Source: a virus. Taken from it: DNA of 64,000 bases. The notes beneath the pieces are model-generated. The model worked only from the letters and a program-made list of their open reading frames with translations. It made no database searches and was not told where the DNA came from. A program made the translations under genes and the position numbers. Of this stretch, positions 25,260 through 57,198 are shown one piece after another (position 1 is the stretch's first letter; each line of letters opens with the position of its first letter). The stretch covers positions 34,854 to 98,853 of the IMG/VR virus record IMGVR_UViG_3300021184_000001; one strand, given 5' to 3'.

Positions 25260-25276
25260 CTAAATCAGACATTTAG
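25260..25276. promoter_or_regulatory. AANCRGACA box upstream of chaperone-tape measure unit
   Basis: CTAAATCAGACATTTAG; 16 nt identical to 38575-38590. Confidence 0.7.
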
Positions 25277-25287
25277 GTTTCGGTGTG

Positions 25288-25770
25288 TCACGGCCCCGGC
25301 CCGATGTTCCGCACCCCCGAACCGGGCGTAATCACCCACCGCTGCCGCCCCGACGTCCCCCGGATGAGCCCACGCAGCATGAACGGGTTCGCCGGTTGCC
25401 CCTTCACCGACCGCCGATACAGCAGCGCCCCATCCCGCTTGCCCTCGAACCGTAGGAACCGCTTCGTCTTCGGCGTGATCGGACGCCCGCGCCTGCCGTA
25501 GATCCCAGTCCCCGTCTGAACCCACAGCGCCGCCTCGTCGAAGTTCATCACGCGGCCCATGACATACCGGAACGGGCGCACGCGCAGACTGAATCCGTAG
25601 CTGGCCTTCATATCGCCGTCCTGCACCGGGGTCTGCTGCACACACATCGCTCGCACTCGCTGCGATGTCAGCACCACCAACGACGCCACTTCGCCCTGCG
25701 GGGAGTTCAGCAGCCGGTTGGCTTCGGCCATGTTGATGTCGACGCGCGTCACGCGCATCCGGATGACCAT
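25288..25770 (-). CDS. HK97 gp10-like tail completion protein
   Basis: TPVQDGDMKAS, WVQTGTG, ITPKTKRFLRF, VKGQPANPFM. Confidence 0.75.
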   Translation of the reverse strand: MVIRMRVTRVDINMAEANRLLNSPQGEVASLVVLTSQRVRAMCVQQTPVQDGDMKASYGFSLRVRPFRYVMGRVMNFDEAALWVQTGTGIYGRRGRPITPKTKRFLRFEGKRDGALLYRRSVKGQPANPFMLRGLIRGTSGRQRWVITPGSGVRNIGPGP

Positions 25771-26435
25771 TAACCGCCTCCGGCTGGCCGTGAAACGAAG
25801 ACCTCCTCCGCAGGCTCGTTGCGCCAGGTGACTACAGCAGTCTGGCCCGTCGGATCGTCAGGATCGGCATCGACACCGGCCACCAGCTGCGCGACGGGCT
25901 CTTCGGCGACGAGCGGAGCGTTGACGACGAGCGTCAAGATCGAACCGGCACAGCCTCCCGTGGGACCCAGCGGCAGGATCTGCGCCGCGATCACCGAGAT
26001 GGGCAGCTCGAAAGACACCGGCGTGGGCGGCTCACCGGCCAGCGGCCAGCAGCAAAGCACCTGCGCCAGCGTCGCGCGGTCAGCGGCGAGCAGATCCCGG
26101 TCGGCGTCGTAGGCCGCAGGTGCCGGGGCGTTCCCGTTCTCGTCGGGGATGGCGGTGATACAGCGGTAGATGCCCAGCTCGATCTGCGCCTGCCAGGAAC
26201 TCGCGCACGGGAGCCCACCGAACGTGAGGTCTTCGGGGTCGATCTCGATCGCCTGCGAGATGCGACGCACCCACACTTGGCCATTCTCTCCGGCAGTGTT
26301 CGCTTGGCACCGGTCGCCGACCGGCGGCACGTCACCACCGAAGTGATGGCACTCGCAGGCTGGACGCCCTTCGGTACGCAGCATCGAGCACAGGCACGAC
26401 AGCAGCTCGTTTTCGAGGTAGTCAAGGACGTTCAC
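25770..26435 (-). CDS. Putative tail terminator / neck protein, Cys-rich
   Basis: GTG start overlapping upstream stop; IELGIYRC; neck position. Confidence 0.55.
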   Translation of the reverse strand: MNVLDYLENELLSCLCSMLRTEGRPACECHHFGGDVPPVGDRCQANTAGENGQVWVRRISQAIEIDPEDLTFGGLPCASSWQAQIELGIYRCITAIPDENGNAPAPAAYDADRDLLAADRATLAQVLCCWPLAGEPPTPVSFELPISVIAAQILPLGPTGGCAGSILTLVVNAPLVAEEPVAQLVAGVDADPDDPTGQTAVVTWRNEPAEEVFVSRPAGGG

Positions 26436-26656
26436 GCGACGTCCCCCCTGGCGCGATGCACGATGAAGCGCACCGTCCCGATACCCACCAGCAGCAGCGG
26501 CCATGCCAGCGCGTACAGCAGAGCGAAGCCGACGCCCATGGCCAGCCGCGCGGAAGTGGTGACGTCAAATCCACTGGCGACGGCGTTGCGGTAGAGCATG
26601 CGTGCGGTGAATAGCATGGCAACGACGTAGACCACGCTCACGATCAGCGGGATCAT
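26432..26656 (-). CDS. Small two-TM membrane protein
   Basis: 74 aa, two hydrophobic helices, overlaps both neighbours. Confidence 0.6.
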   Translation of the reverse strand: MIPLIVSVVYVVAMLFTARMLYRNAVASGFDVTTSARLAMGVGFALLYALAWPLLLVGIGTVRFIVHRARGDVA

Positions 26657-27450
26657 GGCGTCACCGGTCCGGTGCGCCAGACCTGCGAGGTGTCGACGTC
26701 AGGCGACCACACGGACGGGTTCGAGGTGACGCCATACGGGTTGATCGAAGCGATCCATCGATCGACCCGGGCGATCCCGGTGAAGTGAATGATGCCGTCC
26801 TCTCCGGACCCGATGGTCGAATCCAGCTGCATGCTCAAGCCTTCACGGTTGATGCTGGTGACACCGGAAGGCAGCGTGCCGCACCCGCTGCCAGCTGGTG
26901 GGCATTCTTGGAGCTTGCGGCAGGCGAGGATGCTGACGGCACGGATGGCGTCCAGGCCTGGCGGGGTACCGCGCAGGTAGGTGACGACGAGACCATCCTC
27001 AGTGCAGTAGTCCTGGCACGCGGGCCAGCAGCCGCCGCAGCGGGCGAGACGGTTGCGCGTCAGCAGCTTCCACTCATCGCTGTCCAGGGCGACACCGTCG
27101 ACGGTGACCGACTCGATCGAGTAGACCGGCCCCTGCAGGGTTACGGTGCACAGCTGCGTACACGAGCAGGTGTCGCGGCATCCGCATTTGGAGTTGAACC
27201 AGGAGCCATTGACGTCCCGGTAGGGTCGCATCCAGTACGCCTCCAGCGGACGCGCCACACACTGGTCCAGACAGGGCAGTTCGGTGGTGCGGCACAGGCC
27301 GATCACCCCGGCGACCGCACGCCAGAGCTCGACCGTGGCCAGCCACTGGGCCTCGAAATGGGCCTCGTCCCAATCGTCTTCGTCTGGAGGCCACCCGGGG
27401 CAGCAGACGGGATCGATCGGCCACGGGTCGCACGGGTACAACGCTGACAT
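26653..27450 (-). CDS. Head-to-tail adaptor, Cys-rich
   Basis: LWRAVAG, VTLQGPVYSIESVTVDG, GVTSINREGLSM; 18 Cys in 265 aa. Confidence 0.7.
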   Translation of the reverse strand: MSALYPCDPWPIDPVCCPGWPPDEDDWDEAHFEAQWLATVELWRAVAGVIGLCRTTELPCLDQCVARPLEAYWMRPYRDVNGSWFNSKCGCRDTCSCTQLCTVTLQGPVYSIESVTVDGVALDSDEWKLLTRNRLARCGGCWPACQDYCTEDGLVVTYLRGTPPGLDAIRAVSILACRKLQECPPAGSGCGTLPSGVTSINREGLSMQLDSTIGSGEDGIIHFTGIARVDRWIASINPYGVTSNPSVWSPDVDTSQVWRTGPVTP

Positions 27451-27490
27451 GACAAACCCCCTTCACCGCCTTACGTGACTATATATGACA

Positions 27491-27499
27491 AAACAGACA
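27491..27499. promoter_or_regulatory. AANCRGACA box upstream of adaptor gene (and of divergent mazG)
   Basis: AAACAGACA; TATAGT on minus strand at 27478-27483. Confidence 0.65.
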
Positions 27500-27521
27500 A
27501 TTAAGGAGATGTGCCCAGGGC

Positions 27522-27932
27522 GTGAGCGTCTACTACGATGCGAATGTGAATCTTGCTGACCTTTCGCATCGTGCGATGACCGTTGCCGACCTGTACGACG
27601 AGTACCATCGCCGCAAGCGCGGACGCACCTGGAGCCGATCCGATTACGCGCTCGGTCTTCTCGGCGACCTTGGCGACCTTGCCAAGCTCGTCATGATCGC
27701 CGAAGACATCCGGGACGGCACCCCCGACAAGTCCGCGCTCGAACACGAGCTGGCCGACTGCCTGTGGTCGGTCCTAGTTCTGGCACAGCGCTTCGATGTG
27801 GACCTGGAGACGGCATTCGCCACCACCATGGATCAGCTGGAAGTCCGGGTGAAGGGCAACATCGCCGCACATCGACTACGCTCGGAGACGCGCAGCGGGG
27901 TGGAGCAGCTCGGTAGCTCAACAGGCTCATAA
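27522..27932 (+). CDS. mazG: MazG-like nucleotide pyrophosphohydrolase
   Basis: LGLLGDLGDLAK and LEHELADCLWSVLVLAQRFDVDL. Confidence 0.8.
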   Translation: MSVYYDANVNLADLSHRAMTVADLYDEYHRRKRGRTWSRSDYALGLLGDLGDLAKLVMIAEDIRDGTPDKSALEHELADCLWSVLVLAQRFDVDLETAFATTMDQLEVRVKGNIAAHRLRSETRSGVEQLGSSTGS

Positions 27933-27967: not shown

Positions 27968-27971
27968 CAAG

Positions 27972-28769: not shown

Positions 28770-28802
28770 ATACCCCTCCAAAAGGGACTATAAGTTGAAA
28801 CC

Positions 28803-28843
28803 GGGGGTGCCCGGCCCCCTCGAAAAGAAAGCCGGGCACCCCC
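28803..28843. terminator. Intergenic hairpin
   Basis: GGGGGTGCCCGGC / GCCGGGCACCCCC, 13-bp stem. Confidence 0.55.
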
Positions 28844-28850
28844 GCGTCGC

Positions 28851-29738
28851 TTACGCCGTGGTCGCAGTGACCGGCGCGGTGTAGTCGGAGTCGGAGAACG
28901 ACACGTCGTCGCCGTTGGCACGCACCCGGAAGTCGTACTCGGTGGCGGTGACCAGGCCCGTGACGGTGGTCGACGGCGTGACCGGCTCGGTCGCGAAGTC
29001 GGTCCACTCGGTCTCGACGCTCGTCTTGTACTGGACGTGGTACGACACGGCGTTCGTGACCGCGTCCCAGGTCAGCGGCGCAGTCGTGGCCGTCATGGTG
29101 CCCGTCGCCAAGTTCGTGGGAACCGCGAGCTCCGGCAGCGAGGACTCCGTAGTGGCCGTAACCGTGGCAGTCCACGGCGATTTCGCGAACGCGTTGGTCG
29201 AGTCGGTCGCGCGGATGCGGATGGTGTACGCCGTGTCCGGGGTCAGTCCCGTCAGCGTGAACGGGCTGGCAGTCGCCTGCACCTCCAACCAGGTCGTCCC
29301 CGAATCCGTCGAGTACGACACCGTGTATCCGTTGGCGTTCGGCGACGCGGTCCACGTCAGCGGAATGGTGGTGTCGGTCGGCGTCCCCGCCGCCAACGCC
29401 GTCGGCGCCGCCAGCGGCGTCAGCGGCGTGCAGGTGTCCACGTTGATCGGGTCAACGTCCTCGTCGTAGATGTAGTACGAGACGTACTCGGCGCTTCCGG
29501 TCGGCGGGCACGTGATGGTTTCCCCGTTGTTGCCGGTGAACGGCAGCGGCCCGTACTCGGTGCACAGGTCGTTGGGGATGGTCCAGCGCCCGAGCGTCTG
29601 TCCCGTCGGCGAGACGCAGCACGTACCGAACTGGACGGCGACGTCGGTCATCCCGTTCGCTGCGCGAGCCCAGCAGTGCAGCTGCTGCGCCAGTTCCTTC
29701 TTTGCCGTCTGATCGATCGGCTGGAGCACGATAGGCAT
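28851..29738 (-). CDS. Cys-rich N-terminal domain + 2 fibronectin type III repeats
   Basis: LAAPT..LTW..Y.V.Y..L.P.T.Y.IR repeats; N-terminus shared with 30117-32342. Confidence 0.85.
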   Translation of the reverse strand: MPIVLQPIDQTAKKELAQQLHCWARAANGMTDVAVQFGTCCVSPTGQTLGRWTIPNDLCTEYGPLPFTGNNGETITCPPTGSAEYVSYYIYDEDVDPINVDTCTPLTPLAAPTALAAGTPTDTTIPLTWTASPNANGYTVSYSTDSGTTWLEVQATASPFTLTGLTPDTAYTIRIRATDSTNAFAKSPWTATVTATTESSLPELAVPTNLATGTMTATTAPLTWDAVTNAVSYHVQYKTSVETEWTDFATEPVTPSTTVTGLVTATEYDFRVRANGDDVSFSDSDYTAPVTATTA

Positions 29739-29754: not shown

Positions 29755-30108
29755 CTATTCGGTGATGGGCTGCGGCATGGTCCAGCCGGTAGACGGCTGA
29801 ACGAGGTAGAGCACTACGGCCTGCTCGGCGTCGGGCATGTAGCCGTAAACCGTTTCGTCCTCTACCGGTTCACCACCGAGAGCGGCTGGTATTTCGATCT
29901 CCAGAACGGTTTCGGTATCGGTGTTGCTGTGCGAGGCGAGGAAATATCCACGCTCGGCATCGGCCGTGGCATTGACGTAGAACCCGTAGTTCCCGCCGTT
30001 CTTGAGCCGGATCTTGAACGGCTTGGGTCCGCGCCGCCAGCTCACGATCGGCACCGGAAGGGTGGTGGGACCGTCAAGCTCGACGCGTCCAGTCCGCATT
30101 GGTGTCAT
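29755..30108 (-). CDS. Hypothetical beta-rich virion-associated protein
   Basis: 117 aa between FN3 genes; RBS AGGAG. Confidence 0.6.
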   Translation of the reverse strand: MTPMRTGRVELDGPTTLPVPIVSWRRGPKPFKIRLKNGGNYGFYVNATADAERGYFLASHSNTDTETVLEIEIPAALGGEPVEDETVYGYMPDAEQAVVLYLVQPSTGWTMPQPITE

Positions 30109-30116
30109 GGCTGCTC

Positions 30117-32342
30117 CTAGCTAGTCGACTGCGTAAGGGAGGCGGACCAGCCGGAATCGGCAAAACCATCCGCAGTGGATTTGACCTGGAAGTCATAGGA
30201 GGTCGCAGCGGTAAGACCGCTGACCGTGTCCGAAGTGCCCGACACCTCTGGTTCCTCCGTCCACGTGTTCGCCCCAGCGGGCGAGTGGCGCACGACGTAG
30301 CCACCCGCGTTGATGGCGGTGTCCCAGGTAAGGTCGACCGTCGTCGAGGTCTGCGAGGGGCTGGCGAGGCCGGTGGGCGCTGCCAGCGGACCGTGTGTTT
30401 CCTGCGTGAGCGTTGCGTAGCCGGAGTCGATGTGGTCGGGAGCGACCGCCTTGACCCGCAGGTCGTAGTTGGTCGCCGGGCTCAGGCCGGTGATCTCCTG
30501 GGTGGTTGTGGCAGCGGGGACCGGCGTCCAGGTGCCTGCCCCGGCCGGGGACCACTCGACGACGTAGGAGGCAGCGCCGTCGACGGCGTCCCACGAGGTG
30601 TTGATGCTGGTGTCGGTCTGCGATGGGCTGGTAAAACCGGTCGGCGTCGCCAGCTGCGTCTCTAGCGTCGACTCGGTGAGCGTCGTCGAGTACGGCGAGT
30701 CCGCCAGCCCGGACGCGGTCGCCTTGACGCGAATGTCGTAGGAAGTGTCCGCATTCAGGCCAGTAATGGTGTAGCTCGTCGTGGCCGAGGTCTCCGGGGT
30801 CCACGTTCCGGCCCCGGCTGGAGACCATTCGACTGTGTAGCCGGTGGCCTGCGGAACCGCGTTCCAGGACACGTCGATGGTGGTCGTCGTCTGCGAGGGG
30901 CTCGCGAGCCCCGTCGGCGCCGTCAGGGCGGCGTCGGTCGACTGGGTCAAGATCGTGGACCAGTCCGAGTCCGCCCAGCCCGGCGCCTGCGCCTTCACCT
31001 GGAACCGGTATGCAGTGGCAGGTGTAAGGCCGACTACCGTCTGTGCGGTACTGGCGACCGGGTTCATGACGGTCCAGGCGCCGTCGGGCGAGAGTGACCA
31101 CTGCGTGGTGTAAGTGGCCGCGTTCGGAATCGCTGCCCAAGCCAGGGTAACCGAGGTGTCAGTTTGTGACGGGCTCGTCACCACCGGAGCTGCGAGTGCA
31201 GCGGCCGTCGACTGGGTCAGCGTCGCCGACCATGCCGAGTCGACGAAGTCGTCGGCGGTCGCTTTGACCTGGAAGTCATAGCTCGTTCCGGCCGTCAAAC
31301 CACTCACGGTCGCGCTGGTGACACCCACCGGCGCCAGCGCCGTCCAGGTGCCTGCACCGGCGGGTGACCACTGCACGACATACTCGTTGGCGTCGGTGAC
31401 GGCCGCCCACATCAGGTTGACGGTCTGCCCGGTCTGCGACGGCGACGCCAGACCGGTCGGGGCCGCGAGCTGCTGCTCGGTCGATCCGATGATCGGCGTC
31501 GAGTACGGCGAATCGGTCCAGTCCGGTGCGGTCGCCTTGACGCGGATGTCGTACGACGTCCCGAGGGCCAGACCGGTGATGGTGTACGAGGTCGTCGTGA
31601 CAGGTGGCGACGGCGTCCAGTTGTCCTGGCCCGTCAGCGACCATTCGACGATGTAGGCCGTGGCGTTGTCGACCGCATTCCACGTGACGTCGATGGTGGT
31701 GCCGGTCGACGATGGCGTCGCTACGCCCGTCGGCGCGGCCAGCGTGCCGAGCGACGTGGTGGACACCGTGAGTGTCGCCGACCACGGCGAATCGACGAAA
31801 CCGACGCCGATTGCCTGCACCTGAAAATCGTAGGATGTTTCATCCGTCAAGCCCGTGACCTCGGCAGTCAGCAGGAACGTCGGCGTCAGCTCAGTCCAAT
31901 CATCCTGACCGGCCGGAGACCAGCGGACGACGTACCGCTGGGCGTCGGGGACGGCATTCCAGGCCAGGTCCACGGTGGTGGGCCCCTGCGTAGGCGAGTT
32001 CAGGCCCGTCGGCGCGGCCAGCAGCTGTTCCACGCATGTATTCGGATCGATGGCGTGCACGTCGTCGTCGTAGATGTAGAAGTTGACGTATTCAGCCGAG
32101 CCCGGAGCCGGGCACGGGATGATCTCCCCGTCGTTGCCGGTGAAGTCGAACGGCCCGTACGTGGCGCACAGGGACTCGTCCACGACCCACCGGCCCAGGG
32201 TCTGCCCGGTCGGCGAGACGCAGCAGGACTGGTAGATCAGGTCTTTATCGGTATAGCCGTCTTCGGCTTTCGCCCAGCAGGCAAGCCGCTGCGCCAGCTC
32301 GGCATGCGCGATCTGGTCGACGGGCTGCAACACGATAGGCAC
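30117..32342 (-). CDS. Cys-rich N-terminal domain + 7 FN3 repeats
   Basis: Seven LAAPTGL.SPSQT...W.AV..A..Y.V.WS..G..W units. Confidence 0.9.
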   Translation of the reverse strand: MPIVLQPVDQIAHAELAQRLACWAKAEDGYTDKDLIYQSCCVSPTGQTLGRWVVDESLCATYGPFDFTGNDGEIIPCPAPGSAEYVNFYIYDDDVHAIDPNTCVEQLLAAPTGLNSPTQGPTTVDLAWNAVPDAQRYVVRWSPAGQDDWTELTPTFLLTAEVTGLTDETSYDFQVQAIGVGFVDSPWSATLTVSTTSLGTLAAPTGVATPSSTGTTIDVTWNAVDNATAYIVEWSLTGQDNWTPSPPVTTTSYTITGLALGTSYDIRVKATAPDWTDSPYSTPIIGSTEQQLAAPTGLASPSQTGQTVNLMWAAVTDANEYVVQWSPAGAGTWTALAPVGVTSATVSGLTAGTSYDFQVKATADDFVDSAWSATLTQSTAAALAAPVVTSPSQTDTSVTLAWAAIPNAATYTTQWSLSPDGAWTVMNPVASTAQTVVGLTPATAYRFQVKAQAPGWADSDWSTILTQSTDAALTAPTGLASPSQTTTTIDVSWNAVPQATGYTVEWSPAGAGTWTPETSATTSYTITGLNADTSYDIRVKATASGLADSPYSTTLTESTLETQLATPTGFTSPSQTDTSINTSWDAVDGAASYVVEWSPAGAGTWTPVPAATTTQEITGLSPATNYDLRVKAVAPDHIDSGYATLTQETHGPLAAPTGLASPSQTSTTVDLTWDTAINAGGYVVRHSPAGANTWTEEPEVSGTSDTVSGLTAATSYDFQVKSTADGFADSGWSASLTQSTS

Positions 32343-35246: not shown

Positions 35247-35255
35247 AATCGGACA
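35247..35255. promoter_or_regulatory. AANCRGACA box upstream of major tail gene
   Basis: GGATAAATCGGACAT. Confidence 0.65.
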
Positions 35256-36696: not shown

Positions 36697-38448
36697 TTAC
36701 GCGGTCGTCGAGCAGACGGTGAGCTCCTGCGAGCCCGAGAGTCCGTTCGGGCACAGAGGAATGGTGATGAGCATGGAACGCCCGCAACGGGCACACACCG
36801 CGAATCCCTCTTCGGTGAACAGGCGGGTGTAGACGTTGCGCTGCAGGTCGGTTCGGTCATACACCCCAGTGAGGTTGATGACGTCCTGCTGCAGGGCAAA
36901 GTACGTGCCCGGCTCCCAGAGGAGGATCGAGACCTCTTCCGGCCATTTGGTCGGAGGCGTACCACCGAACGCAGCGGGGTTCTGTTCGGACATGGAGTCC
37001 TGCCAGTCGTAAACCCACTGAATTCGGACACCACGGTCGGCGAACCACCGGTCGAGGATCTCGTCGGTGGCGATGCCCCATCGGTTGTCGATGCCGAGCT
37101 TCTTGGAGATGTCGGCGCGCAGGAGGCCTCGCAGCCAGTACGGCGCCATACCTTCGAGCAGCGCGTTGCGGCTCAGACGCATGGAGTAGCGGAAGAATTC
37201 GACCTGCAGTTCCAGAACCGACAGGAGCGATTCGAACGCCCCCGGGCCGTGGTCGTCGACGGTGATGCCCGTGGAGGGCAGCGAGTTGTCGGCGGGGCTG
37301 CGGACCGGGCCGGGAACGGTGATGGCCCAGGTGGCCATGTCGACCATGCGCTCGATGCGCCGGGCGTTGATGCGGTGCGCGTGCGCGAGCATCGCGTACT
37401 CGACGAATTCCTCGACCTTTTCCGGCCACCCGCGCTCGGTGAGCAGCGGCTGGATGAGGCAGATGCCCTCGATGTCCATGCGGCATTCGGACAAATCGTC
37501 AGGACACGGGATTTCGAAGCAAGGCTTCTCAACTCCGGCGATAGCGTCCGTTTCCGTCTGTTCGAACCCCACGAGGGACCAGAACGGGGCGAAGTCGGGC
37601 CTACGCGAGTACTTGACGCCGCCACGCGTTGCGGTGATGGTCGGCAAATCGACCATTCCGTCACGAGACACCGGAATCGGACAAACGTCGTAAAGAACCT
37701 CAGAAGGGGCACACCATCCGCCAGCGGCGACGAGCGACTTCCCCGGGAGGTTCTTCTGGTTGGTGACCTCGTCGACCTTGAGCCAGTCAGAGGCACCGGT
37801 GTAGTTGAGGTGGTCGGGCGCCTCACGCTTGATCGAGCACAGACCCTGGCGCACGCCCGGGGCCTGGGATCGGGAGACGACGGTCATACCGGCCTGGACG
37901 GCGGCGGCGATCGCCTTGGTGTCCGGCAGCTCGGTACCTCCGCGATAGTCGGGAAGGTCGCCTGCCGCCACGACGGTGTGCTTCACACGGTCGGTGCGAT
38001 CGCCTGCGGCCACCTGCGTCGGAGCGACGGAGGCAGCCTGAGCCAGCGGGATCGGCATCTGATTACTCGCCTTCTGGGTCTGCGGAGCTCCATCAGCGGC
38101 GACGAGTTCGCCTTCGCGGGCGGGCTCGGCCACCTCTTCAGCGGAGGCCGCGCGAGCGGCCGTGGCTTCGAGGTCGGCTTCCTCGGCTTCGGTGGCTTCG
38201 GTCTCGGTCTCGCCATCGCCGGTGCGCCGGTCGATCGCGTCGAGGATCACGGCCAGCGACTCAGCGCGGGCGATGTTCTCCTCGTCGGAAGGCACTTCGT
38301 CGATGTAGGCCTGCGCGGCTTCGATGGCAGCGGTGCGGATCGCGGCCAGGTCGTCTTCAGAGACTTCGCCGACGAGCTGCTCGATTCGCGCGAGCCGCTC
38401 CTCGGCATCGAGACCGTTCAGCGCCTCGATGAGTTCGTCGAGCGTCAT
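36697..38448 (-). CDS. Major capsid protein with N-terminal scaffold-like segment
   Basis: Acidic Ala/Glu N-terminus then GGWCAPSEVLYD..LPTITATRGGVKY. Confidence 0.85.
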   Translation of the reverse strand: MTLDELIEALNGLDAEERLARIEQLVGEVSEDDLAAIRTAAIEAAQAYIDEVPSDEENIARAESLAVILDAIDRRTGDGETETEATEAEEADLEATAARAASAEEVAEPAREGELVAADGAPQTQKASNQMPIPLAQAASVAPTQVAAGDRTDRVKHTVVAAGDLPDYRGGTELPDTKAIAAAVQAGMTVVSRSQAPGVRQGLCSIKREAPDHLNYTGASDWLKVDEVTNQKNLPGKSLVAAGGWCAPSEVLYDVCPIPVSRDGMVDLPTITATRGGVKYSRRPDFAPFWSLVGFEQTETDAIAGVEKPCFEIPCPDDLSECRMDIEGICLIQPLLTERGWPEKVEEFVEYAMLAHAHRINARRIERMVDMATWAITVPGPVRSPADNSLPSTGITVDDHGPGAFESLLSVLELQVEFFRYSMRLSRNALLEGMAPYWLRGLLRADISKKLGIDNRWGIATDEILDRWFADRGVRIQWVYDWQDSMSEQNPAAFGGTPPTKWPEEVSILLWEPGTYFALQQDVINLTGVYDRTDLQRNVYTRLFTEEGFAVCARCGRSMLITIPLCPNGLSGSQELTVCSTTA

Positions 38449-38549
38449 GTCGTATCTCCGGATGTGGAGTGGGCGCGTCGCTGTCGTCCCCGGCCCTCAC
38501 GCCAGCGGTCCGCTCAGTGCCTGGTCACCCACACCCCAGACACTGGATA

Positions 38550-43056: not shown

Positions 43057-43068
43057 CACAACAGCATA

Positions 43069-43077
43069 AACCGGACA
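43069..43077. promoter_or_regulatory. AANCRGACA box upstream of DUF1360-portal
   Basis: AACCGGACA; minus-strand TATGCT abuts it. Confidence 0.65.
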
Positions 43078-43691: not shown

Positions 43692-43692
43692 C

Positions 43693-44046: not shown

Positions 44047-44053
44047 GCACACC

Positions 44054-44905
44054 ATGAAGATCACTCACTACCTCCATGACCTGGCAGTCTTTCCACTCAC
44101 CTTGAGCTTCCGGCCCGCAGCCGACCAAATCGATCCAGGCCGCCTGCGCCTACTGGACCCGATCGTCTTCGTCCCCGGCCTCGGCTGCCACCGCAACTGG
44201 TTCGACACCGCATTCAGCCACCAGGCCCTGCGCACCCATGCCCTGCTGAGCATCGACCTGCCGGGCCAAGGCGACCATGCCGACGACCACATGTCACGCG
44301 ACTTCAACCGCCACCCCATGGACGGCCTGATCACCATCCTCTCCGGATGCGTCCAAGGCGCGCTGGAGCTGGTCGCCGACATGAACGACGACACCCGCGT
44401 CCACATCGTCGCCCACTCGATGGGCGCGCTGGCCGCCCTGCGGGCATGGCAGGCGCTTCCATCGCACCGGCGTGGCCGCTTCATCTCGATCGAAGGGAAC
44501 ATCACTAGCGAGGACTGCTCCATGGCGTCGCGGTCCATAGCGAAAGGCATCGACGCCGTCGAGCAGTTTGTCGCCGACATCGCCGGGAGCGACGACCCCG
44601 CCATGCGCTGCTGGGCTGTCGACCTCGCCTCCTGCGAACCCCAGTTCCTGGTCAACCTGGCTTCGTCCATCGTCGCCTGGTCCGATGTCGAGCACAACCA
44701 CCCGCGCGGGGGCGCTATGAGGGACGCCGTATACCTCTACGGGGAGCGCAGCGGTTTCCCCGAGCACCACCGCGCACGTTTCGAGGAACTCGGTGTGATC
44801 ACCCAGGGCATCGAGAACTCGGGGCATTTCCCCATGCACGATAATGCTGACGACCTGTGGAACATCGTTGCCGACGCTGTTAGGAGCTACCGTGCCCGTT
44901 ATTGA
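44054..44905 (+). CDS. Alpha/beta hydrolase
   Basis: FVPGLG, IDLPGQG, AHSMG nucleophile elbow, SGHFP. Confidence 0.85.
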   Translation: MKITHYLHDLAVFPLTLSFRPAADQIDPGRLRLLDPIVFVPGLGCHRNWFDTAFSHQALRTHALLSIDLPGQGDHADDHMSRDFNRHPMDGLITILSGCVQGALELVADMNDDTRVHIVAHSMGALAALRAWQALPSHRRGRFISIEGNITSEDCSMASRSIAKGIDAVEQFVADIAGSDDPAMRCWAVDLASCEPQFLVNLASSIVAWSDVEHNHPRGGAMRDAVYLYGERSGFPEHHRARFEELGVITQGIENSGHFPMHDNADDLWNIVADAVRSYRARY

Positions 44906-45464
44906 GATCGACTCCTTGGACGATGAGCGCTTCACGGAGCTGTTCACGTCCTTCACCGATTCGGCATGGCGCCTGGAGACCCTGGACTCCTACAGCGTCG
45001 CCTACGAGGAAGAGGCCTACAAAGCGTTCCTGGAAGGCGACCTGAGCCTCATCCACGAACGTCCCAGCTCGTGGATCGACGAGGTCATCGTCCCGGCGGT
45101 GGAAGCGGGCCGCGACATCGGCCGCGTCCACGTCATCGAACGCTTCACCGACGAGGACGGCAAGCTCGCCCTCGGCGACTACCTTCGCTTCGAGTTCGAG
45201 TGGTACAAGCGGAACAAGGCCGCCGGGGAAGATATCCGGATCGCGTGGGTCGAGCCGGGGCAGTGGGTCAAGAACGTCCGCAAGATGGGCCGCGACTTCT
45301 GGCTGTTCGACGAGGACACCGACCACGCCAAGGTCGTGGAGATGCACTACGAGCCTGACGGCTCGTTCGCCAAGGCCGTCGTCACGCGCAACGGCCGCCG
45401 GATGAAGGAAGCCGTGAAGTGCAAGAAGGCTGCCATGCGTGCGGCGAAGCGGTTCTATCCCTGA
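44892..45464 (+). CDS. DUF6879-like protein
   Basis: FTSFTDSAWRLETLDSY, RVHVI, DFWLFD..MHY; RBS AGGAG. Confidence 0.7.
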   Translation: MPVIEIDSLDDERFTELFTSFTDSAWRLETLDSYSVAYEEEAYKAFLEGDLSLIHERPSSWIDEVIVPAVEAGRDIGRVHVIERFTDEDGKLALGDYLRFEFEWYKRNKAAGEDIRIAWVEPGQWVKNVRKMGRDFWLFDEDTDHAKVVEMHYEPDGSFAKAVVTRNGRRMKEAVKCKKAAMRAAKRFYP

Positions 45465-45495
45465 TTCCGTAGCCGGTATGCGCGACCATGGAGCG

Positions 45496-45894
45496 ATGAG
45501 CGATCCCGACATGCCGTTCGCGTCCTTGCGGGAGTACCTTCGCGCCGTAGGGCAGTCCCTGGGCGACGCGGTCCAGGACCTGCAGGACGCTTTCGCGGAA
45601 CTATCCGCCAGCCTCACCGACGTCCTCGGCCCGAAGCTACGCGCCGCCGGACTCCTGGCTGAGCCGCGCACGACCAAGGCCGAACGGCGCCGCGCGAAGC
45701 AGTACCTCGCCCGCCAACGGCGCACCGGCGAGCGCCCCCGGATCGGCATTGCCGCCTGCGCCCGCCTCCAGCGACACCCGCTGGCCACCGGCGGCATCGT
45801 CCCCGCAGGCGAACAGCACCTCATCGACACCAGCAGCCCGTGCGCGATGTGGACACGAGAATCCATCGAATACACTACGGAAGCAGGAGCATGA
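45496..45894 (+). CDS. Hypothetical protein
   Basis: 132 aa; RBS GGAG; stop overlaps next ATG. Confidence 0.55.
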   Translation: MSDPDMPFASLREYLRAVGQSLGDAVQDLQDAFAELSASLTDVLGPKLRAAGLLAEPRTTKAERRRAKQYLARQRRTGERPRIGIAACARLQRHPLATGGIVPAGEQHLIDTSSPCAMWTRESIEYTTEAGA

Positions 45895-46313
45895 AGCGGG
45901 CGTCCAGTCAAGCAGCGAGCACCACTGAGGTGGACGCCCGCTCCAGCGACCAGTGCCCGTTCTGCCAGATCATCACCGGTCAGGCCCCCGCACAGGTCGT
46001 CGCCAAGTTCACCAACGCCATCGCGATCGTCCCCCTCAACCCCCGCGTCGAGGGCCACGTGCTGTTCATCCCGCACCTGCACGTCACCAAAGACCACAGC
46101 GTCGCCGTCAGCCACTCGCCGACCATGTACATGTGGATGGGCGCATGGCAGTACGCGCTGGCCCAGCGCAGGCCTTTCAACCTCATCATCAACATCGGCG
46201 CCGAAGCGACCCAAACCGTCGACCACCTCCATCTGCACTACCTGCCCAGGAGCAACGGCGACGGGATCGCGCTCCCGTGGACGCGGCTGCCTGCCGACAT
46301 GGAGCAGCCATGA
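45891..46313 (+). CDS. HIT family nucleotide hydrolase
   Basis: CPFCQI, PLNP..GHVLFIP, QTVDHLHLHYLPR histidine triad. Confidence 0.9.
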   Translation: MKRASSQAASTTEVDARSSDQCPFCQIITGQAPAQVVAKFTNAIAIVPLNPRVEGHVLFIPHLHVTKDHSVAVSHSPTMYMWMGAWQYALAQRRPFNLIINIGAEATQTVDHLHLHYLPRSNGDGIALPWTRLPADMEQP

Positions 46314-46546
46314 GAGATCCGCTCCTGTCCGTACCGGTGCGCCTGCACTACCGCACCGGCTCCTCCTGCGACTGCCGCACCATGGCCTACTGGACCCTGG
46401 AAGCGCCGATGCTCGACCAGTACAGGCCGCTGCCGTTCACCTCGCGCGGCAGAACGATCCGGTGGCGCTGGTGGCACGAGCTGTTCCGCAGCCCCTCGTT
46501 CACGATCACGGCCGCCGACTTCCCCGATCATCCGGAGACCGTGTGA
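46310..46546 (+). CDS. Hypothetical protein
   Basis: ATGA overlap; 78 aa. Confidence 0.5.
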   Translation: MRDPLLSVPVRLHYRTGSSCDCRTMAYWTLEAPMLDQYRPLPFTSRGRTIRWRWWHELFRSPSFTITAADFPDHPETV

Positions 46547-46899
46547 GCGAGCAGGTCGACCACTCCTATCTGTCCCAGGCGCCGATCACGCTGGTGTGCC
46601 CTCCCGAGCTGAAGTCGCGGCTGATGCTGCGCCTAGCCGACTGGGCCACTGACGTCGAAGGCAAGCTCGACCCGGGCATCCAGGTCCATGTGGGACGCCG
46701 CGACCGGGACGACTACGGCAGCGAAGCCCCGCAGGGGTACATCACGGTGGTCCCGGGTGTGTTCGTGCTCTACGGCGAGGCGCCTTTCACCGGCGACGGC
46801 GGCCAGACCATCGCGTGGTGGGCAGCGCCGCGCGCCTACTTCATCGGCGAAGACGACCTCGCTGCGCCGCCGCGCTTAGGATCGGGGCATGAACCCTGA
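46543..46899 (+). CDS. Hypothetical protein
   Basis: GTGA overlap; 118 aa. Confidence 0.55.
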   Translation: MSEQVDHSYLSQAPITLVCPPELKSRLMLRLADWATDVEGKLDPGIQVHVGRRDRDDYGSEAPQGYITVVPGVFVLYGEAPFTGDGGQTIAWWAAPRAYFIGEDDLAAPPRLGSGHEP

Positions 46900-47131
46900 C
46901 TCGATCCTCGTCGGCAGCCCCCTGTGGTCGTTCAACCGGCTGCTGGACGGCGTCGGTTACCGCTATCCGGTGGTCATCTGCTGCCAGGGTCGCAGCTCGT
47001 GCAGCGCCTGCGCCACGGCCCACACCCGGCAGCATGCGCTTGAGTGGATGGTCAGCCACTCCGGCACGCACGCCGAAGGCACCACCGAGTTCGGCCTGTG
47101 GCTCAGCGACACGCCAGGCCACATGCTATAA
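46889..47131 (+). CDS. Small Cys/His protein
   Basis: CCQG..CSAC..H; ATG 6 nt after TAGGAT. Confidence 0.5.
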   Translation: MNPDSILVGSPLWSFNRLLDGVGYRYPVVICCQGRSSCSACATAHTRQHALEWMVSHSGTHAEGTTEFGLWLSDTPGHML

Positions 47132-47437
47132 AACAGGGAGCTGGCTCTCGCGGCCTCGCCGCCAGTCGGCCCTCATGAGCAACGGGGGGCCGGACGTTAG
47201 CCCAGACGCTGGGTGCGGTGAGAAGTGACGCGCTCACCAGCGAGGCCGCATCTCCAGGTAGCATTGGAGGCTCCGAAGGCCCCGACGTTCAGGCGGGGCG
47301 ACCCGGCGCAATCGCAGACTGCAGGGTGGGGTCCTGCCGTGCACGGCGTGCATCGGACACGGCCGTGGAGATTACGCGCCGCGCTGCCATCGGGGTTCAG
47401 CCACGGCAGCGCGGCGCACTCATCGCATAGCTGAATA

Positions 47438-47446
47438 AAACGGACA
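47438..47446. promoter_or_regulatory. AANCRGACA box upstream of terL
   Basis: TAAAACGGACATT; TAGATT at 47453-47458. Confidence 0.65.
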
Positions 47447-47464
47447 TTCGGGTAGATTCGGGTT

Positions 47465-48979
47465 ATGCCGGATCTGTCGAAGCTGTCTGACGCGGAGCTG
47501 TACGCCTACGCCGCGCGCGTTCAGGCGCTCCACGATCCCGCCAGCCTCGGCGCCTGGATCGAACCGCGCTACCAGATCTGCCCCCACCACCGCCTCATCG
47601 GCGACCGCCTGGCGCAGCTGGCCCAACCGGGCGGCAAACGCAAGGTCATGATCTTCGCGCCCCCGCGCACCGGCAAGAGCGAGCTGGTCACCAAGAAGTT
47701 CCCGCTGTGGTGGCTCGCCCGCCACCCCCACCACCAGGTCGTCGCCGCCGCCTACGGATCGGATCTGGCCAAGAACTGGGGCCGCGACGTCCGCAAGGCC
47801 GTCCGCGAGCACGGCAGCAAACTCGGTTTGAGCATCTCCCCGGAGCAGCGCACCGCCCAAGCCTGGAAGCTCACTACCGGTGGCGGCATGAAAACTGTCG
47901 GTGTGGGTTCGGGTTTGACCGGCCATGACGGCGACCTGCTCATCTGCGACGACCCCCACAAAGACCGCGAAGAAGCCGAATCGAAGATCTTCCGCGACGC
48001 GGTCGACCACTGGTGGACCTCCACGTTCCTCACCCGAGGGTCTCCCGGCGCCCCCATCGTCCTCGTTCTCACCCGATGGCACGAAGACGACATCGCCGGT
48101 CGCCTTTTGCAACGCGAAGGCAACGAATGGGACGTCATCCGCCTCCCCGCGATCGCCGTTGACGCGAACGACCCGCTCGGCCGCGCCCTCGGCGAACCGC
48201 TCGGCCACCCGAAGATCCCCCAGGACGACAAGAACGCGCTCCTCGCGCACTGGGGCGGCCTGCAGTCCTCGCTGTCCAAGCGCGACTGGTTCGCCCTGTT
48301 CCAATGCGACCCCCAACCCGTCGAAGGGGCCCTCCTCACCCTCGAACAGATCGAAGCGTCCCGCCACCGCGCCGGAGAACCGCTCCCCGAGAAGCTGCGC
48401 GTCGCCGTCGCCGTCGACCCTTCCGGCACTGCAGGCGGCGACGAAGCCGGGATCGTCGCCGGGTTCCTCGGCGACGACAACCGCTGCTACATCACCCACG
48501 ACAAGTCCCGGCAGGCGTCCCCCACCGAATGGGCCCGCGAGGTCGCCCTCATGTCGTACGAGCTGACCGCCGACGTCATCTTCGTGGAGACGAACTTCGG
48601 CGGCGAGATGTGCAAGCTCCAGATCCAGTCAGCATGGTCCGATCTGGAGGAAGACGGTGCCATTCCACCCGATGTCCCCATCCCCCGAATAGATGAAGTT
48701 CGCGCCCGATACGGAAAACGCATTCGCGCGGACCCGGTTGCCCAATACTGGGTGCAAGGCGATATCCGTCTGGTCGGTGAACATGACAAGCTCATCCAGC
48801 AGTGGACGACCTGGCAGCCCGGTTCCCGAGAAAGCCCCGGGCGCATCGACGCCACGGTCTACCTCGCACAAGGGCTCCTCAAAGGAGCCGGATACGGGAG
48901 AGGCGAAATCATCGAACCGCCGATCGGGATGAGCATCTACGCCGACCCCCTCGACTGGGCCACCACGGACCTGTACTAG
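47465..48979 (+). CDS. terL: Terminase large subunit
   Basis: FAPPRTGKS Walker A, LICDDPHKD Walker B, VLVLTRWHEDD, VAVDPSG, SPGRIDA. Confidence 0.93.
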   Translation: MPDLSKLSDAELYAYAARVQALHDPASLGAWIEPRYQICPHHRLIGDRLAQLAQPGGKRKVMIFAPPRTGKSELVTKKFPLWWLARHPHHQVVAAAYGSDLAKNWGRDVRKAVREHGSKLGLSISPEQRTAQAWKLTTGGGMKTVGVGSGLTGHDGDLLICDDPHKDREEAESKIFRDAVDHWWTSTFLTRGSPGAPIVLVLTRWHEDDIAGRLLQREGNEWDVIRLPAIAVDANDPLGRALGEPLGHPKIPQDDKNALLAHWGGLQSSLSKRDWFALFQCDPQPVEGALLTLEQIEASRHRAGEPLPEKLRVAVAVDPSGTAGGDEAGIVAGFLGDDNRCYITHDKSRQASPTEWAREVALMSYELTADVIFVETNFGGEMCKLQIQSAWSDLEEDGAIPPDVPIPRIDEVRARYGKRIRADPVAQYWVQGDIRLVGEHDKLIQQWTTWQPGSRESPGRIDATVYLAQGLLKGAGYGRGEIIEPPIGMSIYADPLDWATTDLY

Positions 48980-49587: not shown

Positions 49588-49588
49588 C

Positions 49589-51957: not shown

Positions 51958-52596
51958 TTAGGCCTGCTCGATCGCCGGTGCGGGTCCGGCCGCCGCGAGT
52001 TCGGCGCGGCGGCGCAGCTCTTCGGCGAGTTCCATGGTGCGGGCGTCGAGCGAGTCGCCGCTGCCGACGGTCACTTCGGCGCGGGCTCCGGCCATGATCT
52101 GCGCGGCGGCAGCCTGCTCGGGGCCCCCGAGGCGCGTCATGCCGAGGATGCCGTTGCCGACCTTCACGGACGTCTCCCAGAACATGACGAGGTCGCGCAG
52201 TTTCCAGTTCTCGGCGTCCTGGACCATGGCTTCCATGGCTTTGAAGATCATGTCCTCGGCTTTCGCGAGCTGCTTCAGCCGGTTCTCGACAAGGACGAGC
52301 CAGTGGTGCTCCAGCTGCCCCTGCACGGACTGGACTTTCGCGAGGTCATTCGCGCGGGCGCGCGCTTCCCACGAGTAGCGGCGCGCGAGGCGCTTGACGT
52401 GCCGGTCGGAGAAGTCCGTCTTGCCGAACAGCTCGGAGATCCGGCGTGGCAGCACCTCGCGGGTATCGGTGTCCGCCTGCGGGGAAAGCTTCATGTACAT
52501 CTTGAACAGGGTGTACTGCTCGTCGGTCTCGCCCGGCTGCTGCTCCCACAACTCGATGTCCTCATCGAGTTCGATCGGTTCATCCCAGTTCGACAT
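51958..52596 (-). CDS. terS: Terminase small subunit
   Basis: WEQQPGETDEQYTLF..Y..WEARARAND resembles the WERQxGES TerS family; ATG 6 nt after TACGAT. Confidence 0.7.
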   Translation of the reverse strand: MSNWDEPIELDEDIELWEQQPGETDEQYTLFKMYMKLSPQADTDTREVLPRRISELFGKTDFSDRHVKRLARRYSWEARARANDLAKVQSVQGQLEHHWLVLVENRLKQLAKAEDMIFKAMEAMVQDAENWKLRDLVMFWETSVKVGNGILGMTRLGGPEQAAAAQIMAGARAEVTVGSGDSLDARTMELAEELRRRAELAAAGPAPAIEQA

Positions 52597-52611
52597 ACAC
52601 AAATCGTACAG

Positions 52612-52620
52612 AACCGGACA
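52612..52620. promoter_or_regulatory. AANCRGACA box upstream of terS
   Basis: AACCGGACA; minus-strand TACGAT 3 nt away. Confidence 0.65.
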
Positions 52621-54931: not shown

Positions 54932-55164
54932 GTCCACTGTGGACGGATCGGCCCTCCTTTGTAGTCTGTCGATTTTGGATTGATCCTGTGTGGACTGTCG
55001 TGTGTGGACGCATGATCTTCGCTCATTCCTGTGTGGACGTCCTTTGTGGACGCTGGCGTGTCTCTTGTGGGTTCGTCCTGTGTGGAATTGGTGAGCGTCG
55101 CTTGTGGATTATGCGCATTGGCGCGCTGGCACTAGCCGCGCGGTTAGCTACCTCTCATGTGGAC
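54932..55164 (+). repeat. Array of TGTGGA(C/T/A) motifs, DnaA-box/iteron-like
   Basis: Copies at 54938, 54989, 55003, 55032, 55045, 55081, 55103, 55158 (variant at 55066); TCCTGTGTGGA at 54984, 55027, 55076; GTCCAC-T-GTGGAC palindrome 54932-54944. Confidence 0.85.
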
Positions 55165-55813
55165 TATCTCTGTGTAGCGATGCGCTTGCGTTCGGTAGCT
55201 GGCGTCTCACTGTGTGGCATTCGGTAAACAATGTGTTCATACTCGGTATGCATGGAATGTGCCTTTGACATGCAGCTCCATTCTTGGGAGCGCTCCATTC
55301 CTTGCCAGCACGACATCACAAACTGATAACGATCATGGCCTCACCCTTGACGCCAGCGCGGTACTGTGCTATTTCGCGCGCGCACACATGCGCACCGTGT
55401 GTAGAGAGCTAGGCCGCGCTGGCGTACCCGTCCGCCTAGGCCGCTGTACGCCTCCCTACGCCGCTCCCGTGGCACGTCCCTACCCGTGACTAGGCCGCGC
55501 CACTGCCAGCGCGCTACGCCTCCCCTAGCGGCCCGTCCGAACCGGTCGCAAGCGATCTAGCAGGGGAAACGCGTATTGTCGCAGGCCAGCGCCGCAATGC
55601 CTCTTTAGCCTCATCTTGTCGCGCTGGCAGGCGTGCGCCACACGCGCCCCATCGTGTCCACTTCGGACGCTCTCGGCTCCACTTGCGACAGTGCGACGAA
55701 TCTACCAGGGAAAACGCTGCATCCTCCCAGCTCACGCCATCAATGCCTCATCCATATCGTCTCGCACCTCTAGGGATATCCCTTCACAGCGCGCGATCGC
55801 TGGCCGCGCTGGC
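55122..55813. repeat. CGCGCTGGC (6 copies) and CTAGGCCGC (3 copies) repeats
   Basis: CGCGCTGGC at 55122, 55415, 55620, 55805 and inverted at 55352, 55505; CTAGGCCGC at 55409, 55436, 55490. Confidence 0.75.
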
Positions 55814-56045: not shown

Positions 56046-56054
56046 AAACGGACA
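56046..56054. promoter_or_regulatory. AANCRGACA box in control region
   Basis: CAAAACGGACAAAA. Confidence 0.55.
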
Positions 56055-56100
56055 AAATGAAACCCCAGCTCACGGCCCCTAAAAATCGCCGTGCTGGCCT

Positions 56101-56118
56101 ATGACATAGTTATGTCAT
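56101..56118. promoter_or_regulatory. Operator-like palindrome
   Basis: ATGACATA-GT-TATGTCAT, perfect 8-bp arms. Confidence 0.55.
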
Positions 56119-56347
56119 CGCTTCCGAGCGACGCGAACCGCAAGGGGCGCGGCACTCGGGCAGGCGAATGTTGTTACCGCGCGTCCCCCATTGCGGATGC
56201 CTCAACCGAACAGTGTGTTTTGAAGCGCAGACGCGCGACGAATCCCGCCCGCATTGGGCGCTCCCTCGGGGGCGAACTGTGCACATGGCTAGCTATATGC
56301 GAAGGGGACCAGTTGCGCGGAAGATTCGGCTAGCGAAAGGATGCGTC

Positions 56348-57133
56348 ATGCATCGCGCATTTATCACAGAACGTGATTACCTTGTTTACGAGGACCCTAA
56401 GCGCGCTCGCCAGCGAATGGATGACGAACGGGCCGTAGGTATGGAAACGTTGGCGCACACTGCCCGCGCTCCCTATCCCCAGTCCGCTCCCCCCATCATG
56501 AATGTTGACGAGTTGTCGGAAGGCCCGAACCTCCCCCATAGGGATGATAAGGACATTTCGACGGAAGCGCGGGACCGGGCGGCTAAAGCTGGCTACTACC
56601 AAGCAGCAACCTACGCGTTCTCATCGGACGCGTACCTCGACAAGCCATCACCCATCGATCGCAAAGCGCGGTCCAAGCGTAAGCACGTGTCTACCAGCGG
56701 CATCACGTACGTCATGCCGCACGGTGCGGGAGTGGACAAACCACTCACGGCACGCAACAAGCACCTCATGTACAAAAACGACCCAACGGCAAGGGAAGCG
56801 CTCGCGAACGTCATGCGAGACGCCACCCCAACCGACAGCGCTGGCGAACCGGTCGCGAACCGGTACACGCTCGCAATCCCGCGCGACATGCTGGTCATGC
56901 TCGCACGGGTGCACGACATTCAAGCTAAGCGCGGCAAGCTGGCAGGTGACAACCGAAGCGACACGCTACGGGAACTCGCCGCACGCATCGAACCGGGCGA
57001 AATGGTCGATATTGACCTGTACTCGCCTAGCGAAGTGACCAGCTTGACGCAAGGGTTGCCCAAGCGTTACAAGTCCGGAGAATTCGGACAATTCCTGAAG
57101 GATCTCGCAACCTTCGTGAAAATCGAAAAGTGA
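56348..57133 (+). CDS. Hypothetical protein, first gene after control region
   Basis: RBS AAAGGA 6 nt before ATG 56348; followed by terminator. Confidence 0.65.
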   Translation: MHRAFITERDYLVYEDPKRARQRMDDERAVGMETLAHTARAPYPQSAPPIMNVDELSEGPNLPHRDDKDISTEARDRAAKAGYYQAATYAFSSDAYLDKPSPIDRKARSKRKHVSTSGITYVMPHGAGVDKPLTARNKHLMYKNDPTAREALANVMRDATPTDSAGEPVANRYTLAIPRDMLVMLARVHDIQAKRGKLAGDNRSDTLRELAARIEPGEMVDIDLYSPSEVTSLTQGLPKRYKSGEFGQFLKDLATFVKIEK

Positions 57134-57154
57134 ACAAAACGTGCAAAAGAAATC

Positions 57155-57179
57155 AGGCTGCCCATGGGCGGCCTTTTTT
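57155..57179 (+). terminator. Rho-independent terminator
   Basis: AGGCTGCCC-AT-GGGCGGCCT followed by a T tract. Confidence 0.75.
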
Positions 57180-57189
57180 CATGTCCCAA

Positions 57190-57198
57190 AACCGGACA
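57190..57198. promoter_or_regulatory. AANCRGACA box before small-gene cluster
   Basis: AAAACCGGACAAAA. Confidence 0.55.

Follow-up and report, generated by a model that had tools for sequence, protein, structure and literature searches.

The 64,000-nucleotide window analysed here comprises bases 34854-98853 of a 138,035-bp IMG/VR record (66% G+C, completeness estimated at 97%) from an uncultured soil-metagenome actinophage (G000), and our study concerns a short recurrent DNA box, AANCRGACA, which is found at its late genes. PHROG and Pfam scans place a siphovirus-type virion module on the minus strand between ~43176 and 12515, encoding a DUF1360-like membrane protein, the portal, a protease/scaffold protein, the major capsid protein, a second capsid-like protein, the major tail protein, Ig-like proteins, a head-tail adaptor, the tape measure and minor tail proteins. 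The capsid protein is 35-40% identical to proteins of Microbacterium, Gordonia and Mycobacterium phages named 'major capsid hexamer protein'. No close cultured relative was found, with the best capsid identity amounting to ~40%, and the nearest prophages in sequenced bacteria reside in Streptomyces (41-49% identity), a search of 185,579 genomes having revealed no close prophage. An integrase of either the tyrosine or the serine type is not encoded. Five IMG/VR relatives, whose capsid proteins are 98, 97, 88, 78 and 65% identical to that of G000, were used for comparison. In the following, G002 designates a 98%-identical relative, G003 and G004 further relatives, and G006 and G007 contigs of a distant clade whose capsid is ~31% identical to that of G000. 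Coding and non-coding status was assigned with our own simple codon-usage gene caller, whose calls are crude.

Within the window, AANCRGACA matches 13 times compared to 2.38 expected occurrences and a maximum of 7 in shuffled sequences, with 12 matches located on the plus and one on the minus strand (Table 1). In the sense of the virion genes, which occupy the minus strand, the box corresponds to TGTCYGNTT(T). Its extended version TGTCYGNTTTA shows 7 matches where 0.02 are expected, all of them on the minus strand. The whole 138-kb genome contains 15 forward and 2 reverse copies, compared to 0 and 3 of a backwards control pattern. All 11 copies listed in the first-pass annotation are exact plus-strand matches, to which those at 37675 and 39436, both within genes, have to be added. 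Non-coding DNA, which accounts for only 11.8% of the genome, harbours twelve of the 15 gene-sense copies (binomial p = 2.3e-9), and a thirteenth falls within the last 80 nucleotides (nt) of the portal open reading frame (ORF), as previously described. The two opposite-strand copies of the genome both lie inside ORFs. A whole-genome scan has revealed no intergenic gene-sense copy before any gene of the early-strand units. All strict copies carry TGTC and hence an invariant GTC triplet, which is replaced by GCC or GAC in the conserved near-matches H and M. The box is usually followed by a T and then by A or G, and preceded by two or three A/T bases.

Table 1. Copies of the box, associated promoter features and neighbouring genes. 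Positions refer to the window unless stated otherwise; sequences are given in gene sense.
Feature	Position	Strand	Sequence and context
Box A	43069-43077	-	TGTCCGGTT; head of virion block, before DUF1360-like gene and portal, in divergent intergenic region
Leaderless layout at A	43054-43068	-	TATGCT (43068-43063), 6 nt, GTG (43056-43054)
Box B	40914-40922	-	in portal 3' end, 85 nt before protease/scaffold start; then TAGGAT
Box C1	38577-38585	-	TGTCTGATT, then TACCGT; distal of two tandem copies before capsid gene
Box C2	38550-38558	-	TGTCCGTTT, then TATCCA; proximal copy, 101 nt before capsid start
10-bp hairpin	38515-38545	-	begins 4 nt after C2
Box E	35247-35255	-	TGTCCGATT, then TATCCA; before major tail protein gene
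Box F	27491-27499	-	TGTCTGTTT, 7 nt, TATAGT (27483-27478); before head-tail adaptor gene
Box G	25263-25271	-	TGTCTGATT; 30 nt before small gene 24720-25232
Two small unannotated genes	24720-25232, 24193-24723	-	directly upstream of tape-measure gene
Near-match H	24154-24162	-	TGCCCGATT; before tape-measure gene
Near-match M	16208-16216	-	TGACCGTTT; 10 nt before tail-fibre gene start; conserved in G003
Box I	52612-52620	-	TGTCCGGTT, 3 nt, TACGAT (52608-52603), 6 nt, ATG (52596); head of terS-like operon
terS-like gene	51958-52596	-	
Box J	47438-47446	-	TGTCCGTTT, then TATTCA; faces away from terL, no co-oriented downstream gene
terL predicted leaderless promoter	47453-47467	+	TAGATT, 6 nt, ATG; inverted Box J 6 nt upstream of hexamer
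terL	47465-48979	+	
Plus-strand block	43197-47131	+	
Orphan K1	56046-56054	-	no TANNNT after box
Orphan K2	57190-57198	-	adjoins terminator hairpin of plus-strand gene ending at 57133
Capsid-internal copy	37675-37683	-	within capsid gene; probably incidental
Copy at 39436	39436	opposite to the rest	inside protease/scaffold gene; looks incidental
Canonical PafBC-type site	7537-7558	+	before SSB gene at 7607
Canonical PafBC-type site	genome ~107672-107693	+	
Canonical PafBC-type site	genome ~128071-128092	+	
Endolysin-like gene	genome 119195-119923	late strand	isolated; own copy, box, 7 nt, TAAACT, 6 nt, ATG
terL of G004			TGTCCGATC-TATGGT, 6 nt, ATG
Gene O42872 of G004		reverse	box, 7 nt, TAATAT, 6 nt, ATG

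The proposal of the first-pass annotation that the box marks essentially every morphogenesis transcription unit as part of a late regulon holds to the extent that a non-random, conserved and orientation-specific cis element is tied to virion and lysis units. Each restart of the minus-strand block in the window carries either a copy or a conserved near-match (43069, 52612, 27491 and 16208), with Box F restarting the block past a plus-strand island containing ORFs and tRNA and near-match M past a partition-like island on the same strand. However, the plus-strand block and the terL promoter are devoid of a box in their own sense, the gap at 28781-28851 and most of the tail region contain either none or only near-matches, the copy at 47438 is inverted relative to terL, and those at 56046 and 57190 have no co-oriented gene downstream. 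Both near-matches that had been described, at 24154 and 16208, are present and conserved as near-matches in G003. In G004, two reverse-strand copies precede reverse-strand genes, and the orientation of the box thus follows the gene rather than the chromosome.

The same strand-biased excess is found in all five relatives, whereas 97 further loci with related capsids (1.75 Mb, taken from viral contigs and bacterial genomes) contain 24 forward and 23 reverse copies, which at ~0.27 per 20 kb per strand corresponds to background. In alignments of orthologous regions, the box is unchanged at A, B, C, E, F, G, I and J, while the flanking non-coding DNA and neighbouring codons diverge. Box A and its TATGCT hexamer have thus remained unaltered in six genomes, and the complete layout (TGTCCGGTT-TATGCT-6 nt-GTG) is found in all six, including G003 and G004. 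Box B and the ~55 nt downstream are nearly invariant in five genomes. The longest identical version, TGTCCGNTTTATCCA, is common to the capsid and major tail genes, where C2 and E have 15 bases in common. The C2 stretch GTGGTAATGTCCGNTTT is invariant in six genomes including G004, and the E stretch GATGTCCGATTTATCCAT in five, with invariance at E ending one base past TATCCA and the following 6 nt being variable. In G003, Box I is followed by 3 nt, TACGCT, 6 nt and ATG, Box J is strictly conserved although the DNA downstream cannot be aligned, and C1 and K1 (TGTGCGTTT) are degenerate. Near-match H reads TGACCGATT in G003 and is strict in G004 (TGTCCGCTT). The capsid-internal copy is absent from G002 and present in G003 within conserved coding sequence. 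Conservation extends to the distant clade, since G007 and G006 contain non-coding copies orthologous to those at A, C and H, preceding the DUF1360-like/portal pair, the capsid and the tape measure. In this clade, the gene orthologous to that at A shows the arrangement box-N6-TATCAT-N6-GTG in G007, and in both contigs the tape-measure gene is preceded by a strict box-N7-TATGAT-N6-GTG.

Among cultured phages, the closest relative found with respect to the G007 capsid is Actinoplanes phage phiAsp2 (~46% identity), and no copy was detected in the 50 kb of it that were examined. This phage (NC_005885) contains a 16-bp palindrome, TGAC-N8-GTCA (often TTGACTGTGAAGTGTCAA), in more than 30 copies, many of which are intergenic. 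The palindrome precedes portal-side, capsid and tail genes, and is in some cases followed by TAATGT at promoter distance.

A further property of the box concerns its link to hexamers of the sigma-A -10 type. At 7 of the 13 non-coding sites in G000, the box is followed by a TANNNT motif starting within 0-12 nt, compared to 5.8% of random non-coding positions (p = 3e-6), and TA follows directly at 7 of 13 sites compared to a background of 2.6% (p = 1e-8). The abutting hexamers noted earlier at 38577, 40914 and 43069 are all present. TATCCA or TATTCA are found at 3 of the 13 sites, and 6 lack a canonical TANNNT within 12 nt. No -35 box is conserved in the alignments, and a scan of positions 24000-58500 for promoters of the consensus type (a TTGACA-like box, a 16-18 nt spacer and TANNNT) has returned no sites. 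The sole -35 hexamer with four of six matching bases is found at the terS-like promoter, where the box is located within the spacer. The distance between TGTCYG and TANNNT in G000 is N3 at A, B and C1, N6 at I, N10 at the adaptor and endolysin genes, and N15 at G, where TAGGGT starts 12 nt downstream of the box (TAGTAT in G003). At F, the TGTCYG-N10-TATAGT spacing is kept in G000, G002 and G003, and at E the predicted +1 coincides with the beginning of a small hairpin. A leaderless layout, with 6 nt separating the hexamer from the start codon and no Shine-Dalgarno sequence, is observed at A, I, the endolysin-like gene, G004 terL, G004 O42872 and two genes of G007/G006, with the box located 12 to 19 nt from the leaderless start. 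About 18 genes per genome show TANNNT, 6-7 nt and a start codon without a Shine-Dalgarno sequence (such as those at window positions 11559-11585, 47453-47467 and 52594-52608), and leaderless transcripts, including that of terL, therefore appear to be common in this phage lineage.

In our interpretation, the box is a DNA-level cis-regulatory site of the predicted late promoters of virion and lysis genes. As to its mode of action we favour, at about an even chance of being correct, a role of TGTCYGNTT(T) as upstream recognition element of late promoters without a -35 box. A sigma-A-type -10 hexamer would start 0-7 nt downstream of the box (12 nt in one case), with the sequence TANNNT or, in the case of the capsid and tail genes, TATCCA. 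Binding of a sequence-specific factor to the box would allow the host RNA polymerase to initiate where the virion, terS-like and endolysin units begin, and additionally before the protease, capsid, major tail, adaptor and tail-assembly genes. This logic would resemble activator-dependent hybrid promoters, such as those combining the '-26 element' of actinobacterial PafBC with a -10 hexamer, or those with Lpa sites in phage P1. We infer a positive effect from the link of the box to -10 hexamers, its restriction to late genes, the presence of the best consensus before the most highly expressed genes, and the positive control of late genes in well-studied phages (PMC10695390).

Several observations weigh against such a role. 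The distance between TGTCYG and the hexamer differs among well-supported promoters (N3, N6 and N9-10), and even at the orthologous promoter A it changes from N3 in G000 to N9 in G007, so that one rigid activator-polymerase geometry can hardly account for the sites. In TATCCA and TATTCA, the T usually present at position -7 is missing, and a start 7 nt after TATCCA would cut the hairpin following C2. A usable -10 hexamer is absent from both conserved near-matches, H and M, the latter of which overlaps the ribosome-binding site and thus cannot serve as promoter of the tail-fibre gene. Four copies (47438, 56046, 57190 and genome position 121498) are orphans without a co-oriented downstream gene, and at terL the box is inverted, 6 nt upstream of the leaderless hexamer, in both G000 and G003 (where TATATT, 7 nt and ATG are found), a similar arrangement being seen once in G004. 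The phage encodes no sigma region 2, WhiB, T7-type polymerase or WYL protein, and none of the RNA runs checked for the phage holds it. Finally, the -10 hexamers of predicted early leaderless promoters, which are devoid of a box, are just as good, and this would fit repression as well as activation.

The latter relates to the main rival explanation, judged by us to be rather unlikely, in which the copies would be orientation-dependent repressor sites, acting as promoter operators and as 'stoperator' roadblocks within operons, as described for L5 gp71 in Cluster A mycobacteriophages, with the late genes being silenced in a plasmid prophage or early in infection. Stoperators are asymmetric sites present in many copies in short intergenic spaces, whose orientation correlates with transcription (PMC9283540), and the same hallmarks are displayed by our asymmetric word of 9-12 bp, some of whose copies also overlap promoters. 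Repression would tolerate the variable spacing of the hexamer at paralogous and orthologous sites, it would account for the hexamer-less H, M, K1 and K2 and the inverted copy overlapping the terL promoter, and it would be compatible with late -10 hexamers that are no weaker than early ones. The partition-like cassette pointed out in the first-pass annotation and the absence of an integrase would fit a plasmid prophage in need of silencing. In contrast, L5-type sites have another consensus and are distributed genome-wide, including the early lytic promoter and operons, whereas our box is confined to late genes; with no intergenic gene-sense copy at early-strand units, its binder cannot be the immunity repressor. 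Tight linkage to a -10 hexamer is not a feature of stoperators, and roadblocks would not require the hexamers that are enriched directly after the box. It is also the strongest and longest consensus that precedes the two most abundant virion proteins, and the word is kept between clades with ~31% capsid identity that have no DNA-binding protein in common, which would be unusual for fast-evolving phage repressors. A homologue search with L5 gp71 (183 aa) has yielded nothing at E <= 10, although a distant analogue is conceivable. The element is best filed among factor-dependent late promoters without a -35 box, and would act by activation or, less probably, by repression.

Two further explanations were considered. 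In actinobacterial promoters TANNNT alone is often sufficient, and without any dedicated factor the box could constitute the upstream half of duplicated sigma-A promoters, serving the host holoenzyme alone as extended -10 or spacer element. The 15 bases common to C2 and E and the seven TGTCYGNTTTA sites could then reflect descent from one promoter cassette. We consider this quite improbable, since the box has been retained at differing distances to the hexamer and even at sites devoid of one, and is found exclusively at late genes although early promoters have similar hexamers. Alternatively, UGUCYGNUU might act as RNA-level signal in the late transcript, in processing, boxA-like antitermination or translational control, which would agree with its location on the sense strand of late genes, the many copies in 5' untranslated regions, and the hairpin following C2, where a fold alignment shows compensatory changes in G003 (G-C to A-U and U.G to U-A). 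Such a role is highly improbable because leaderless promoters in divergent intergenic DNA place the box upstream of the predicted transcript start, so that it would not be transcribed at A, I, the endolysin gene and G004 terL. In addition, start codons are found anywhere between 10 and 128 nt from the box, and apart from two tRNAs an Rfam search has returned no match. Other assignments were rejected: promoters of the ECF (extracytoplasmic function) or sigma-28 type due to the lack of a conserved -35 box and the 12-19 nt distance to the leaderless start, a DnaA box due to the missing CACA part, and Chi-like, packaging or methylase sites due to the intergenic location of 80% of the copies.

Among known activator-dependent promoters, those of P1 Lpa resemble the described sites in the replacement of the -35 box by a 9-bp element and in their number, with about a dozen late promoters (11 per genome in P1) scattered over a large, possibly plasmid-kept genome. 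However, the P1 element is an inverted repeat, whereas our box is asymmetric with variable spacing, an inverted second half-site being exceptional (found only at 57190 and at G007 O33046), and no Lpa-like gene was identified. T4 middle promoters, consisting of a MotA box and TAnnnT, equally combine a 9-bp asymmetric box with a host-type -10 hexamer independent of a -35 box. In T4, however, the MotA box has its centre at -30, shows a nearly fixed spacing and depends on the phage proteins MotA and AsiA, in contrast to our phage, where neither an analogue nor fixed spacing was found.

Of the promoter architectures described, that of PafBC comes nearest. The PafBC hybrid promoters of mycobacteria and other actinobacteria follow the pattern tGTCgg(N10)tA(N3)T, where a '-26 element' whose GTC is read by the winged helix-turn-helix of PafB replaces the -35 box (PMC8635444). 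Our sites similarly contain a TGTC-containing hexamer with invariant GTC, which at 7 of the 13 non-coding sites is located upstream of a canonical TANNNT, and no conserved -35 box is apparent in the alignments. Exact TGTCYG-N10-TANNNT sites are found at the adaptor and endolysin genes, at G004 O42879 and at G007 O41529, with one more G007 site showing N9, and a spacing scan for TGTC..-Nx-TANNNT peaks at N10. Canonical TGTCGG-N10-TANNNT sites, located 26-55 nt before genes, occur three times in non-coding early-strand DNA of G000 compared to 0.07 expected. All three are conserved in G002, and G003 keeps TGTCAC-N10-TAATCT before the SSB gene. Nevertheless, N10 spacing, with the hexamer placed at -28 to -23, applies to no more than 2 of the 13 non-coding sites, and most box sites show N3 or N6, of which N3 would not be compatible with the solved PafBC-polymerase geometry. 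Position 5 of the box is C or T, and an additional invariant TT(T) comes after the hexamer. The older RecA-NDp consensus contains A or G at position 5. PafBC is a heterodimer of WYL-domain proteins, and no WYL domain was detected in the phage or in 7 relatives. It appears clearly unlikely that the late genes and, by way of the canonical sites, some DNA-metabolism genes are wired to a host PafBC-type regulator or a paralogue. If they were, the sensing of single-stranded DNA by such a regulator, which works by 'sigma adaptation', would permit phage replication or DNA damage to switch on virion production without a phage-encoded late activator, TGTCYGNTTT would be a phage-specific variant of the -26 element common to at least two actinophage clades, and phages would be found to use 'sigma adaptation' promoters.

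The search for a binding factor within the phage has remained without a convincing candidate. The helix-turn-helix (HTH) proteins put forward in the first-pass annotation are weak candidates, as homologues of those at 1686 and 54562 are found in G003 and are absent from G004, that at 10685 has none in either, and none is common to the G007/G006 clade and thus to all genomes containing the box. Outside the virion module, the proteins common to G000, G003 and G004 comprise the terS-like protein, terL, SSB, a Cas4-like nuclease, a GH26-like protein and a protein of 179 aa that is weakly similar to RNA ligase. None of the proteins common to box-bearing genomes, which in addition to these are structural ones, is an evident DNA-binding regulator, and nothing regulatory is common with G007. 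A search for sigma-70 region 2 has found none, with only a weak region-4-like HTH in a DUF742 protein, and neither the HTH candidates nor other conserved proteins show an informative match in Pfam, PHROG or the PDB. It is more likely that the factor is encoded elsewhere than in the window, possibly in the host genome, and the lack of a phage-encoded candidate makes a host-encoded factor a serious possibility.

Two regulator-like loci were observed elsewhere in the genome. At genome positions 13518-14322 (L106, plus strand), a Roadblock/LC7 protein is encoded beside a DUF742 protein with winged-HTH signature, a pair that we take to represent the CvnB and CvnC parts of an actinomycete 'conservon'. 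Homologues of the DUF742 protein and of a 191-aa protein downstream are found in G003. At 29910-31115 (L107:9910-11115, plus strand), a 401-aa HTH_31 and TPR protein (phrog_10886, transcriptional regulator) is reminiscent of the RRNPP/AimR type. It adjoins a gene resembling HTH_36 replication initiators and has a 30% identical homologue in G004.

Other features of the region deserve mention. Between the plus-strand gene and Box J, the G+C-rich non-coding DNA at 47131-47437 (~330 nt), which contains a 13-bp stem at 47378-47418 and cannot be aligned with G003, could be either a non-coding RNA transcribed from Box J or a packaging-related region beside terL. At 54938-55166, within ~1.2 kb without a called gene, there are eight co-oriented TGTGGA words, seven of them TGTGGAC, which is complementary to the core of the DnaA box of actinobacteria, TTGTCCACA. 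The array, already noted in the first-pass annotation, is probably a DnaA-dependent origin. The heptamer CACAGTG/CACTGTG is intergenic in 6 of 6 copies in G000 (p ~3e-6), with TGTGAA and CTGTGAA also enriched in non-coding DNA, and it may constitute a second regulatory word for other genes. A 101-aa product (38820-39125, minus strand) is 97% identical between G000 and G003, whose flanking portal, protease and capsid proteins are only 76-78% identical, and its counterpart in G004 forms the C-terminal part of the protease/scaffold protein. A Ro60-like protein with TROVE and VWA domains (540 aa; G007 L135:18219-19841) is encoded in G003, G004 and G007 but not in G000.

Collectively, the box is genuine and conserved, and marks a putative late regulon in a lineage of uncultured actinophages. 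To our knowledge, little has been described on the timing of late expression in actinobacteriophages, and our limited literature search has retrieved neither a description of the box nor a late activator or late promoter consensus for these phages. The putative regulon comprises about a dozen sites per genome in seven uncultured genomes of two clades. As a conserved cis element, the box provides a handle for finding the factor that binds it, and it would help to annotate transcription units and leaderless starts in uncultured actinophages.

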